A stretch of DNA of 64,000 nt from an uncultured archaeon (lineage in GTDB: Archaea; Asgardarchaeota; Lokiarchaeia; Sigyniarchaeales; SOKP01), in assembly GCA_964508365.1 (NCBI GenBank), contig CAZDTP010000012.1, forward strand, positions 1 through 64,000. The letters run 5' to 3'. The translations under genes were made by a program, and so were the position numbers. Positions 2 through 4,042 of this stretch are shown piece by piece (position 1 is the first letter of the stretch; each line of letters opens with the position of its first letter). The notes below the pieces were generated by a model. The model was given only the letters and a program-made list of their open reading frames with translations. It made no database searches and was not told where the DNA came from.

Positions 2-822
2 GTTAAATAAGGAGAGGATATCACTATCCTCTTCCTCTTTTAGGAACCCCGCGTGCGAGTTTCCCCGCACGGGGCTCGCGCCTCAACTCGAAAGATTCGT
101 TCTTGAAACCGTCTTACGTGTCGTCTGGGAATATCCCATTGGATACTATCCCAATCTACCACACGCCCTTTGTTCTGTTCAATGCTTTCACACATCGTCT
201 AACTTCACCTCCAGTTAAGATTTTTCAATATGTTTCTTTCGTTGAGACCTGCTTAGGAAGTCAGCACCCTTTCAAGTTGGGTATCTCGGTAGTTTAATCA
301 AGACTGCAGCCCTATCCATACCATTACAGCATGGCATTCGCTTTTTCCAGCATCCTCTGCCCACTAAGTCTTCCCCTTTCCTCACGGTCAGGATACCATA
401 ACGCATACATATATGGGACTTATTGGGTTTACCAAGTTCCTTATGTCCGACTTTCAACAGAGCCCTTAGAGAGGCACTTTCCCCCGGTTGCACAATGGAT
501 AACAAAGAAATGAGAAAAAACCATTTCTACCTGACAACTCACCATTTTGGTCTCGGCGTATCAGCTATATTTCGCCGATTTATAATAACGAGGTTTATCG
601 CACCTTCACGTTAATTTCCCATAGGCTCCTTGGCTAGCCCCTCAGACCATTCTATAGCTAAATGCTGAAGGTACATTCTCCCCAAAGCTTCACACACCAT
701 CATTACTAACGATGCATGTTTGGGTAGCCATTATCGGTCATCTCGATATTAGTTTTTGAAAATCACCTTTATGTTTCTTTCTTTTCAAGTCCTATATTCG
801 GACATAAAACTTCTTGTCGCAC
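2..822 (-). mobile_element. ORF-less (RT-deleted) group IIB intron, chloroplast-like (CL) type
   Basis: On the minus strand the element starts GTGCGACAAGAAGTT at 822. DV is GAGCCCCGTGCGGGGAAACTCGCACGCGGGGTTC (77..44), with AGC triad, GAAA loop and CG bulge. DVI has a GUGA tetraloop and a bulged A at position 8, and the intron ends ...AUUUAAC at position 2. The d3 hairpin GAAATG/CATTTC carries loop GTTTTTTCT (EBS1, 520..513), which pairs with 5' exon AGAAAAAA (830..823). Two loops pair over 9 bp (661..653 with 569..561). Confidence 0.95.
40..195 (-). pseudogene. Remnant N-terminus of the intron-encoded reverse transcriptase (RVT_N / RT0 region)
   Basis: SD GGAGGTGA precedes an ATG at 195. Translation: MCESIEQNKGRVVDWDSIQWDIPRRHVRRFQERIFRVEAR..., matching the W-x-S-I-x-W...V-R-R-x-Q-x-R-I motif at the start of CL-type intron RTs. 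The frame then runs into the DIV 3' arm and DV and stops at 42..40. Confidence 0.85.
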
Positions 823-888
823 TTTTTTCTTTATATAGATTCGTTGTATAGTTAGAGTTATCAATATTATATAGTTACAACGAAAAAA

Positions 889-2124
889 ATGATTACACAA
901 GAAGCAATACCATGTCCAATTATTCCCTACAAGAAGTTAAATCCGAAATCAGTAGATGAGTTCTTAGACATTTTTGAAGATGTTTTAGATCTAGATCTGG
1001 AGAAAGGTATGGAGTTAGATTTTACCATAGATAGCAGTTTAGGTTCGGACAAGATTAGCCCCACGCTATTTTTAGCAAAGCCTAAAGACGCGTTTGAGAT
1101 TGCAAATATATGCAAGGAAGTATACGAAGGTTCTTACCCGTACAAAGAGATAGAAGACCCGCGGGAAGTGAAGAAAATGATCGAAAGCTCCGAGCACCAC
1201 TTTATTCTCTTCAAGATTGAGGATGATGTTGTCGGGTGCTTTCGGTGTGCGTTGGATTTTGAGCACCGTAAGGGTTACACGGGTGGATTTATGATCCGGA
1301 AAGAATATCAAGGAATTATCGACGTTACCAAAGCGATTATCGGATCGTACGCGTGGATGTGGAGCACCTACAAGGACGAAATATTAATGTGGTATTGCGA
1401 GAACAGAACCGCACATGCAGCCTCCCAGTACATAACTTCTGTATGCGGGATAAACACCGTGGCATTCTTTCCTAACAAAGATGTCTTTTTCGATCAAGTA
1501 GAATCGGATGTAATGGGCGTGGTTTTCAGAGAGAAAGCGCTTAAGGAATATCGAGATTCTCAAACGCCCCAATTAATTAGAAACGCGCTCGATAGCTTTC
1601 TCCACTGCGATAACATTTACAGACTTGGCGGATTTAACTTAATTTGTCCAGATATTCAGCTTAATTACGAAAAGATCGAAGTGTTTCAGAAATCCTTTCG
1701 AAAAGATGTGATCAAGGACAAGTACGGTTACCAATATTACCAGTTTTTTATCAAAGGAACAAAATCATATTTTTCGTTTCTTCACACGCCCTGTATACAG
1801 AACCTCGAAAAAACCAAGTATCACATAGAATCTTTAGAAGAACTATATGTGTACTTAGAAGAGTTTTTAAAAGTGATCAAAGAAAGCTCAATACGATACA
1901 GCGAAGCGTTTGTGTCTGCGCTTAATCCTGAACATCAACAACTATTTTACGAATTTGGTTTTAGGGCGAGGGGATATGTACCATGCTGGAATTTCAAAAA
2001 AGACGACAAATCGTTCGAGGATTATGTGGTGTTTAATTATTTCGAGGGAAAGGTTCCACAAGCTGAATTTCTTCCGGTAGGTCAAGATTTAGTAAATATG
2101 TTAAATCTACAAATCAATCTTTAA
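889..2124 (+). CDS. Tandem GNAT-fold protein, function unknown
   Basis: 411-aa ORF with GNAT-like strands (GFMIRKEYQG; FYEFGFRARGYVP) in both halves. Confidence 0.6.
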   Translation: MITQEAIPCPIIPYKKLNPKSVDEFLDIFEDVLDLDLEKGMELDFTIDSSLGSDKISPTLFLAKPKDAFEIANICKEVYEGSYPYKEIEDPREVKKMIESSEHHFILFKIEDDVVGCFRCALDFEHRKGYTGGFMIRKEYQGIIDVTKAIIGSYAWMWSTYKDEILMWYCENRTAHAASQYITSVCGINTVAFFPNKDVFFDQVESDVMGVVFREKALKEYRDSQTPQLIRNALDSFLHCDNIYRLGGFNLICPDIQLNYEKIEVFQKSFRKDVIKDKYGYQYYQFFIKGTKSYFSFLHTPCIQNLEKTKYHIESLEELYVYLEEFLKVIKESSIRYSEAFVSALNPEHQQLFYEFGFRARGYVPCWNFKKDDKSFEDYVVFNYFEGKVPQAEFLPVGQDLVNMLNLQINL

Positions 2125-2159
2125 CTTAACTAACAACATTTATATATCGAATTCGATAG

Positions 2160-2744
2160 TTGAAATATATGAATGATCTTCCAAGAGATAAATATGAAAT
2201 TCTAGATATAGTTTTTACATTCCTCCACACACTATGTATGTCCTTAACTGCTATCTTTCTTTTATACAATTGGATAGTTTCTTTAATATTTATCATTGTA
2301 GTAGTTCTTTTTGCGTTTGTTGTTTTTTTCTTGTGGAAATCACGGAACCCATTTAATATCTATCTCATTAGAGCATTTGCTTTTAATAATCTCTTCTTTT
2401 CAATTATCGCACTCATGATTTTCTATTCTATGCTTTCTACTATAGCTGCTCATCCAGTAGCTTACGCTTTACTTCTTTTCCCTTCTGTTGTTTATCTTAT
2501 AAAATCGTATAAATTTTCTGCTGTTACTACTCCTAGCGATAAAAAAGAGGGTGCAATGTTAGCATATGCTGGAAAAACTGAGGCTTCACGGCAAAGGTTA
2601 TTTAGAGATAACATGGAGGACCGAATAAAACGAAAAGAATTAATTGCCAAACAGAAAGAAGTATACAGATATAAAATAATTATTGTTTTAACTATAGCAT
2701 TAACTTTAAATAGTTTTGTAGCTCTTATCTTTGGATTTTCCTAA
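2160..2744 (+). CDS. Hypothetical membrane protein (about 5 TM)
   Basis: 194-aa ORF with several hydrophobic segments. The real start may be the ATG at 2169. Confidence 0.7.
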   Translation: MKYMNDLPRDKYEILDIVFTFLHTLCMSLTAIFLLYNWIVSLIFIIVVVLFAFVVFFLWKSRNPFNIYLIRAFAFNNLFFSIIALMIFYSMLSTIAAHPVAYALLLFPSVVYLIKSYKFSAVTTPSDKKEGAMLAYAGKTEASRQRLFRDNMEDRIKRKELIAKQKEVYRYKIIIVLTIALTLNSFVALIFGFS

Positions 2745-2869
2745 TTATTTTTTGAATTTAGTGGAACGAGTTACAAAGTTAGCGAATTTTGATTTTTTTC
2801 TTTAAATATATCCTTCTTTTTAAGAATATTAACATCTTAAATCTAAAAAAATTAAAAAAATGATGAAAA

Positions 2870-4042
2870 ATGGAAATTAGTTTAGAAAAAACGATTGCAA
2901 AAGAGCTTATTGTCGCTTCAACTCGAATCATTTCGGAAATTCAGTTTGTTTTAACTGAGCTTTTATACATTCCTGACGAAAGGCTAAGACTTGTGGTTAT
3001 TTTAGAACTTTTAGATTATATTACAGAAAAATTTTCGAGACCAGACTATAACATTAGATTTTTTTATACTACTCAGAACGGAATCTTAACGGGATTCGTA
3101 ATTTGTCAAATAGACAGTGAGTACAAAAGTTACGGAATGTCATGCCCGACTTTTGGGTGGCTTCATGCTAAAAACTTTCTTTCATGCAAAAAGCTCATGA
3201 ATGAGTGTGAAAATTTCGTTCGACAGAACAATTTTCGAAAGCTTCGAGGTCCTGTGAATTATCCCAAAATTATTGGGGGAATTGGCTGGCAGACCGAAGG
3301 GTTTTCTTCTCCAATGATGAGTGGAGTTGCATATAACGATCCAGGTTCAAATGTTCTTGTTTATCTAAAGGAATTAGGATACAAGATTGACTCCAAATAC
3401 TCATGCGTAGACGCGTTCGTGAAAGTCTGGGAGAAAGGAAAAGAATTAGACGACGACATTATAATTCGCTTTTTACCGCTCGATGAAATAAAAGCATTAA
3501 AAGGGGAAATATTGAATTTAGCTCAGCAGTCTTTTTATTCTGTGTTAGCTGACGCTGTAGGAGGTCAATCTCGGTTTGAAGAAATGATGGAGATATTTTA
3601 CCAAGCCGCTAAAAAAGTTCATATTCTGAATCCTAATTTTGATCCTCAAACTTTCGCTGATATACCTGGCTTTTTGGAAACCTGGAAAGCAGCTGATCTC
3701 GAGAATATCGTCTCTACATGCATTTTCGCGTTTGACAGACTCTCTGGGGACCTTGTTGGACTATTGATGGCCCAACCTAACCTTTTTCAGTTGTGGGCTG
3801 GAGAACCGCTTACGCACATGAACGTTGATACGGTTATCATCAAAAAGGAGTACGCTGGAAAAGGCATATTCTCTGCGCTTCACAATATTGGGAAAACTTT
3901 ATCTTCTGCTGTGTATGGATATAATTACTTCGAAGGCACTACGATATGGGCAAACAACGATCGCGCAATCAAGTCGATCTTTCCCCATAGTTCCCCGTTA
4001 AGAACTCACTATGTGGTCCAGAAGCGAATCTTAAAAAAATAA
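2870..4042 (+). CDS. GNAT-family protein, YghO / bacterial ceramide synthase-like
   Basis: Motifs TFGWLH...LRGPVNY...GWQTEGFSSPMM..AYNDP...LGY, plus a C-terminal acyl-CoA-binding-like segment (VIIKKEYAGKGI, TTIWANN). Confidence 0.65.
   Translation: MEISLEKTIAKELIVASTRIISEIQFVLTELLYIPDERLRLVVILELLDYITEKFSRPDYNIRFFYTTQNGILTGFVICQIDSEYKSYGMSCPTFGWLHAKNFLSCKKLMNECENFVRQNNFRKLRGPVNYPKIIGGIGWQTEGFSSPMMSGVAYNDPGSNVLVYLKELGYKIDSKYSCVDAFVKVWEKGKELDDDIIIRFLPLDEIKALKGEILNLAQQSFYSVLADAVGGQSRFEEMMEIFYQAAKKVHILNPNFDPQTFADIPGFLETWKAADLENIVSTCIFAFDRLSGDLVGLLMAQPNLFQLWAGEPLTHMNVDTVIIKKEYAGKGIFSALHNIGKTLSSAVYGYNYFEGTTIWANNDRAIKSIFPHSSPLRTHYVVQKRILKK

Follow-up and report, generated by a model that had tools for sequence, protein, structure and literature searches.

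The window analyzed here, a 64,000-nt stretch that begins contig CAZDTP010000012.1 (hereafter C12) of an uncultured Lokiarchaeial genome, opens with a complete group II intron on its minus strand. The intron runs from position 822 to position 2, comprises all six ribozyme domains and lacks the gene for an intron-encoded protein (IEP). We consider it highly probable that the element is a non-autonomous derivative, deprived of its open reading frame (delta-ORF), of a chloroplast-like (CL), IIB-type group II retroelement circulating in Lokiarchaeia-type Asgard archaea, and that its ribozyme is structurally competent and most likely dormant. Its identity, boundaries, structural integrity, deletion origin, target pairing and lineage are counted here as established.

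An Rfam scan of the whole 64 kb gave two matches above the gathering score and no others, both on the minus strand within the intron. RF00029 (Intron_gpII) matches at 79..2 with 53.5 bits (gathering score 40, E 1e-7), covering domains V and VI (DV and DVI), and RF02012 (group-II-D1D4-7) matches at 749..615 with 49.9 bits (gathering score 34). The G+C content of the intron stretch is 40-48%, against 31.8% for the genome, and the fold of the 821-nt RNA compared with shuffled sequences gives z = -5.3. A preliminary description, made from the letters of the window, had already proposed a full group II intron on the minus strand. It listed a 5' end, a GUAA-capped stem, an alpha pairing, a hairpin carrying exon-binding site 1, DV and DVI; all of these are present where it had placed them, and the six domains are now backed by Rfam and by covariation.

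Both limits of the intron are established by comparison. Orthologs of the neighboring gene were used to locate the corresponding loci in the same genus, seven of which lack an intron upstream; the similarity of the window to these intron-free loci stops at 823-825. At the other end, similarity to a paralogous copy on contig C28 of the same genome ends exactly at position 2. The 3' exon continues as a contig of its own, C131, and when the 5' exon of the window is joined to it (AAAAAA followed across the junction by ATAGAAAAT) the product aligns unbroken to the intron-free locus of genome G008, with a single 8-nt indel away from the junction, in the 5' exon. Furthermore, metagenome contig L097 matches the locus at 100% identity from the 5' exon through the complete ORF-less intron into the 3' exon. 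The preliminary description had named in advance two tests that might overturn it, a covariance-model search within 2..822 and the position of the junction in empty alleles relative to 822/823 and 1/2. Both came out in its favor, since the two Rfam families match inside that interval and since the seven empty loci and the joined-exon alignment to G008 agree on the junction.

The contigs C12 and C131 meet exactly at the 3' splice site, where they overlap by a single base and have no k-mer in common, and L097 and a second metagenome contig, L098, read through this point. A gap of about 7 nt between the two contigs, drawn from the synteny alignment, is ruled out by L097, in which they abut or overlap by one base. 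An assembly break placed at the splice site hints at allele heterogeneity in the population, with empty, ORF-containing or ORF-less alleles. In a relative of the same genus, G021, the orthologous site carries an ORF-containing copy of the intron, which is itself split, its 5' part lying on C182 and its 3' part on C235, whose exon matches the empty-site flank. The occupation of this site in both G021 and the window is most simply explained by repeated homing into a conserved target.

The origin of the ORF-less form emerges from the second copy. The genome assembly (4.07 Mb in 149 contigs, rated 100% complete, with the intron at the start of C12) contains one further copy, C28:40956-43177, whose ribozyme is 95% identical and which holds 1400 extra bases in domain IV (DIV); the search for further copies and for a parent encoding a reverse transcriptase (RT), suggested in the preliminary description, thus ended in a single candidate. 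The protein product of the C28 insert combines RVT_N, RVT_1 and GIIM domains (TIGR04416, group II intron reverse transcriptase/maturase, 353.6 bits), and a domain search found no HNH endonuclease domain in it. Because this closely similar copy has an RT-encoding insert in DIV, the window copy is a deletion derivative. Judged from the alignment, the ORF-less form arose from a single 1400-bp deletion in DIV that removed the RT/maturase gene. The lost segment comprises DIVb and the IEP gene, starting 3 nt past the closing stem of DIVa and ending at the 3' strand of the DIV basal stem. The label "ORF-less" given to the intron therefore stands in that the IEP gene is gone and needs qualifying in that the intron is a 1.4-kb deletion derivative in which 37 IEP codons remain; by tblastn this remnant is 86% identical to the IEP over 37 amino acids. 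The exact 23-nt sequence at the deletion junction recurs in L097 and L098 and, since L097 also spans exon, intron and exon at 100%, the junction is no accident of assembly.

The DIVa hairpin has been retained. It surrounds a Shine-Dalgarno-like GGAGGUGA and the AUG at 195, and its closing stem shows a double compensatory change in the intron G028d (CUGAAGA with UCUUCAG). By likeness to Ll.LtrB and TeI3, it would be an IEP-binding-type hairpin with a role in maturase binding. The IEP gene of the C28 copy (C28:41584-43086; L004:3585-5087) is otherwise full length, with its YADD motif present, and has TAA at codon 19. This codon is CAA in the window remnant and in all close relatives, so that the C28 stop looks like a recent nonsense mutation.

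To what extent the ribozyme itself has been preserved can be gauged from covariation, scored over domains I to III (DI-DIII) of 17 related introns from Lokiarchaeial genomes, 65-95% identical to the window. Standard pairs fill 93.5% of the cells, compared with 78.9% after column shuffling and 39-46% when the partners are slid by 1-3 columns. Compensatory double changes occur in 111 of the 167 pairs, whereas shuffles give 62 +/- 4 (0 of 500 reach 111) and slid controls 39-50. In the alpha-alpha' pairing such changes are found in L008 (U>A with A>U) and in L009 (C>U with G>A). The statement of the preliminary description that the stems are intact is borne out: only two of the 167 pairs are non-canonical in the window copy, both in one peripheral stem, and close ORF-containing relatives have 0-3. 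By these counts the ribozyme core appears as intact as in the ORF-containing relatives. The bulged A of DVI lies seven nucleotides from the 3' splice site.

Two exon-binding sites (EBS1 and EBS2) in DI face the corresponding intron-binding sites (IBS1 and IBS2) of the 5' exon, with five of five positions paired for EBS2 and five of six for EBS1. Both pairings covary over at least nine family members, including between the window copy and C28. EBS1 covaries with the exon in C28, L008, L011 and G021 (EBS1/IBS1 being AUUUUU/AAAAAU in C28, GUUUUA/UAAGAC in L011 and UCUUUC/GAAAGA in G021), and EBS2/IBS2 reads UUAUA/UAUAA in the window, UUAAA/UUUAA in C28 and UGAAA/UUUCA in G021. Family members target T(A/T)TAAAG with an A-tract behind it, a motif that corresponds to an archaeal TATA-like box in reverse complement. 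IBS2 is TATA-like (TWTAAA) at every family site.

Table 1. Features of the group II intron at the start of contig C12 and of its flanks, in window coordinates.
Feature	Position	Strand	Basis and remarks
Complete group II intron RNA without IEP gene, 821 nt	822..2	-	Rfam, paralog, empty sites, bridging contigs
5' splice-site consensus GUGCG	822..818	-	Direct reading; in 15 of 17 aligned family introns, the other two having GUGCA and GUGUG
Intron 5' end GUGCGACAAGAAGUU	822..808	-	Direct reading
Domain I, with GUAA tetraloop at 706..703	816..433	-	Consensus structure and covariation; RF02012 at 749..615
alpha UUAGCUAUA	661..653	-	9-bp complementarity to alpha', one G-U among the pairs
EBS2 UUAUA	585..581	-	Pairs with exon -9..-13
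alpha' UAUAGCUGA, loop of hairpin 578..553	569..561	-	9-bp complementarity to alpha
EBS1 UUUUUC, loop of hairpin 528..506, after GGU	519..514	-	Pairs with exon -1..-6
Domain II	427..360	-	Helices 21-23 of the covariation count
J2/3 and domain III, outer limits approximate	357..250	-	Consensus structure, covariation
Peripheral DIII stem with the window's only two broken pairs	309..287	-	Stem absent from G028a-c
Domain IV remnant	248..80	-	Fold
DIV basal stem GUCUCAA with UUGAGGC	248..242 with 86..80	-	Fold
DIVa closing stem CGAAAGA with UCUUUCG	240..234 with 96..90	-	Fold; long-range stem enclosing the start codon
Remnant reading frame, 51 codons	195..40	-	First 37 IEP codons (RVT_N start), then out-of-context codons into DV
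Deletion junction, 1400 bp lost relative to C28 (L004:3694-5093)	87..86	-	Alignment; 1 nt microhomology
Domain V, 34 nt, with AGC triad, AC bulge and GAAA tetraloop	77..44	-	RF00029 alignment and direct reading
Domain VI, bulged branch-point A at position 8, AAC 3' end	41..5	-	RF00029 alignment and fold
First 3'-exon base, A	1	-	Exon continues as C131:1; L097 and L098 100% identical across the junction
IBS1 AAAAAA, last six 5'-exon bases	828..823	-	Pairs with EBS1
IBS2 UAUAA	835..831	-	Pairs with EBS2; on the + strand within TATA-like TTTATATA at 830-837
Divergent neighbor gene, 411 aa	889..2124	+	No Pfam or NCBIfam family; start 66 nt from the intron 5' end

The class of the intron can be approached through its parts and through the protein of its paralog. 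IIC is excluded because an EBS2 is present and DV measures 34 nt. Among solved structures the C28 IEP is most similar to that of the TeI4h ribonucleoprotein (6ME0, 352 bits), well ahead of IIC proteins (116-157) and of the IIA protein LtrA (147), and TeI4 introns are classified as CL/IIB1 (PMC2882425). The IIB assignment made in the preliminary description is supported by this ranking, and the window intron is probably of the IIB kind. A literature search for the mapping of the Rfam D1D4-7 model to an intron class returned nothing useful.

Several points weigh against the overall interpretation. IIB introns are distinguished by an EBS3 in the coordination loop that pairs with the first 3'-exon base, the IIA equivalent being delta-delta' beside EBS1; EBS3 was not identified here, as over seven introns the first 3'-exon base has no covarying partner column in DI, with or without wobble pairs, and for this reason the assignment to IIB is founded mainly on the IEP lineage. 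Position 6 of EBS1 stands opposite A(-6) in a C.A mismatch. The outer DIII helices 24-26 show little covariation; for this region RNAalifold on a truncated alignment draws part of the 5' strand of DIV into DIII, a solution we discarded as unreliable. Finally, the metagenome-assembled genome (MAG) is divided into 149 contigs, so that an intact IEP copy may be unassembled.

The lineage of the host and the distribution of the family are more directly documented. The preliminary description had placed the host among Asgard archaea from gene content, and this placement is upheld by seven matches to the actin family and by the affinities of the IEP. The actin-family matches (PF00022) fall on C22, C60, C90, C23, C1, C15 and C103, four of them scoring 296-429 bits over nearly the full model; such a large eukaryote-like complement of actins and actin-related proteins fits an Asgard archaeon. 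Profilin (PF00235), tried as a second Asgard marker, gave no match anywhere, controls included, and is uninformative. The seven closest IEPs (77-86% identity) come from Promethearchaeota, the Asgard phylum of the NCBI taxonomy, or from archaeal MAGs, and the next nearest (44-48%) from marine Gammaproteobacteria and a few other bacteria; gammaproteobacterial hosts of these bacterial IEPs are not mentioned in PMC3552965. IEP relatives (E <= 1e-40) occur in 14 of 300 genomes sampled across Promethearchaeota and, besides the genome studied here, 12 of the 13 bearing genomes fall in two families of one order. The distribution of the intron family is patchy, in the manner of a mobile element.

Efficient splicing and mobility of group II introns in vivo need a maturase. 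In a transcript of the window copy that includes its 5' exon, EBS1 and EBS2 would pair with IBS1 and IBS2, the bulged A at position 8 would act as the branch nucleophile and the AGC triad of DV would take part in catalysis; a maturase provided in trans and bound at DIVa would be called for in efficient splicing and in endonuclease-independent retrohoming. That the intron may still splice, as the preliminary description had it, is plausible on structural grounds only. By tblastn the 4.07-Mb assembly has a single RT gene, that on C28, and because this only assembled IEP gene has a premature stop we infer that the window copy is most likely dormant at present; its dependence on a trans-acting protein and the role of DIVa belong to the same inferred part of our interpretation. 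Additionally, transcription of the window copy is doubtful, since no promoter is evident on the intron's own strand.

Alternatively, the ORF-less intron might still be active, as a functioning non-autonomous retroelement like TeI3, either with an IEP in trans (from an unassembled copy, or from the C28 protein restarted at a TTG) or by self-splicing. We regard this as unlikely. In its favor, the ribozyme core is intact to the degree seen in ORF-containing relatives, four of six window-private substitutions in paired columns preserve the pair, the pairing of both EBS elements to the intron's own exon is kept with the differences from C28 compensated, DIVa is retained, the C28 IEP has a single defect, and trans-mobilized ORF-less relatives are documented in Thermosynechococcus elongatus (PMC2882425). 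On the other side, the sole assembled RT gene is interrupted at codon 19, and translation from the next possible start, the downstream TTG, would yield a protein lacking about 60 N-terminal residues. The genome has one ORF-less copy and therefore no sign of proliferation, the site lies between two divergent promoters with none evident upstream on the strand of the intron, and all three IEP matches in the closed genome of a relative, G032, carry stop codons.

Two further accounts were weighed. One supposes that the site truly holds a full-length intron, as in G021, and that the ORF-less join or the contig end was misassembled at a repeat. The place of the intron at the very start of C12, where the contig breaks off a single nucleotide beyond the 3' splice site, and the division of the G021 copy over two contigs would suit such an artefact; we nevertheless find it very improbable, given that the exact deletion junction reappears in two other metagenome contigs, that L097 spans both exons, that a 5% difference separates the window copy from its sole counterpart in the genome and that the deletion ends share no repeat beyond 1 nt. 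L097 and L098 are separate assemblies, perhaps from sister samples of the same population, and are not necessarily independent populations. The other account, which we rate as extremely improbable, sees a GC-richer structured RNA or DNA between back-to-back promoters that the host has retained for a purpose of its own, for example to insulate or regulate the divergent genes. The closeness of the intron to the TATA-like boxes of both neighbors and the presence of an intron at this site in another species of the genus could be cited for exaptation; yet the site is empty in seven same-genus relatives, the two closest included (91% identity of the neighbor protein), repeated occupation is accounted for by site-specific homing, and the window copy is not distinguishable from ordinary family members. 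We thus retain a structurally competent, most likely dormant delta-ORF derivative as the preferred interpretation.

Turning to the genomic setting, the insertion spacer measures 212 bp and separates two divergently transcribed genes; placed between two back-to-back promoters, the intron thus interrupts no gene. The box at 830-837 (+) stands 51 nt before the ATG at 889, with the intron starting 7 nt behind it, and may serve as the promoter of gene 889. On the other flank a gene for a 365-aa 4Fe-4S protein starts 146 nt past the intron; downstream of the intron this gene has a separate TATA-like box, and the intron lies about 70 nt behind it. The product of gene 889-2124 is conserved at 75-91% amino acid identity across the genus, and most genomes have a paralog at about 40% identity. 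A second large ORF near the intron, 2870-4042 (+), is likewise without a Pfam family. At 4 of 11 family sites (the window, L007, L008 and L070) the nearest divergent ORF has its first start codon 66-79 nt upstream of the intron. The orthologous site in G021 (L084) may be a fifth; there the distance, counted to the first start codon, is 32 nt. The family setting suggests homing just behind promoters. In this context we put forward, as a conjecture to which we give little credence, that the Lokiarchaeial CL/IIB family has evolved an EBS2 of the form UUAWA and a U-rich EBS1 that read the reverse complement of the TATA box and its A-tract, so that it would home to a safe harbor, the untranscribed "back" of promoters, with ORF-less members spliced and moved by a shared IEP in trans. 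If true, the closest prokaryotic relatives of eukaryotes would possess, in such a shared IEP, a common splicing apparatus of a rudimentary kind.

Related introns in other genomes add to the picture of the family. The closed genome G032 (4.4 Mb, same order) has six DV matches, and its contig C1 carries an ORF-less intron of the same broad family (L073:1412-2178, about 767 nt; 58.8 bits for D1-D4 and 46.3 bits for DV/DVI), which is independently derived. Twintrons are also found in related Promethearchaeota genomes. In two cases the inner intron lies within the outer one at position 561 (L012:926-5496, inner intron 1488-3793) and at about position 209 (L010:961-5496), and in L071:206-2399 it sits directly after the YADD codons of the outer IEP (LIRYADD, then GUGCGAC). 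By BLAST coordinates, L009, L010, L011, L012 and L013 are longer than C28, L007 and L008 by about 88 bases in the stretch from the IEP stop to DV.

Among known systems, the TeI3/TeI4 introns of T. elongatus offer the closest parallel (Mohr et al. 2010, PMC2882425). There too the ORF-less members arose by loss of about 1.4-1.5 kb of DIVb with ORF remnants and DIVa kept, EBS/IBS pairing with the flanks is good, most copies are intergenic, and twintrons occur within the family; natural ORF-less derivatives, twintrons and trans-mobilization are documented in that work together with the Methanosarcina studies cited below. The present case differs in its archaeal host, in keeping only an N-terminal ORF remnant, in the interruption of the resident IEP and in its target of TATA-like box and A-tract. 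TeI3, moreover, has proliferated to a set of 17, in contrast to the single ORF-less copy found here, and its mobilization in trans is documented. Engineered delta-ORF targetrons (Ll.LtrB, EcI5, TeI4h; PMC3898094, PMC2882425) are similarly devoid of DIVb and the ORF, retain DIVa and expect an IEP in trans; ours is natural, and its function in trans is putative. In archaea, ORF-less and nested group II introns have been described in Methanosarcina (Dai and Zimmerly 2003, RNA 9:14, PMC1370365; Simon et al. 2008, PMC2525955; both as cited in PMC3552965). These resemble the present system in occurring as ORF-less copies beside RT-encoding relatives and in homing into other introns, including the IEP ORF, as in the L071 insertion at the YADD codons, and they belong to a different archaeal phylum.

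Asgard group II introns are themselves on record. Several IEP types, CL among them, are described in Asgard archaea including Lokiarchaeia (Vosseberg et al. 2023, PMC9887622), the subject is also covered by Mattick et al. (2024, bioRxiv 10.1101/2024.12.10.627823), intact RNA structures are reported for the published introns (PMC9887622; 10.1101/2024.12.10.627823), and PMC8919778 mentions earlier reports. Both surveys start from IEP proteins, in contrast to the IEP-less derivative considered here. Neither, as far as read, describes such a derivative, its deletion anatomy or its target site, and the term "ORF-less" is absent from the text of Mattick et al. (2024). Relative to the literature compared, the TATA-like target preference and the deletion anatomy are thus the parts that appear new. 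The locus is a well-resolved new example and not a new principle, since Asgard group II introns and ORF-less derivatives have both been published.

The importance attached to the intron in the preliminary description, for questions of intron origin, was overstated: group II introns were already known from Asgard archaea, the family is patchy, and its nearest non-archaeal relatives are bacterial. Being patchy and bacterial-like, the family points to a continuing traffic of mobile elements rather more than to an ancestral stock of introns. What the locus does offer is a fully resolved set of reference points: both splice junctions, empty alleles, a sister species whose allele at this site contains the ORF, and a parent-like copy within its own genome. 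It captures an Asgard mobile group II intron turning into a ribozyme that has no IEP and would rely on one supplied in trans; scenarios for how a common splicing machinery arose invoke this dependence as a step. The preference for a TATA-like target is the most useful lead to come from this locus.

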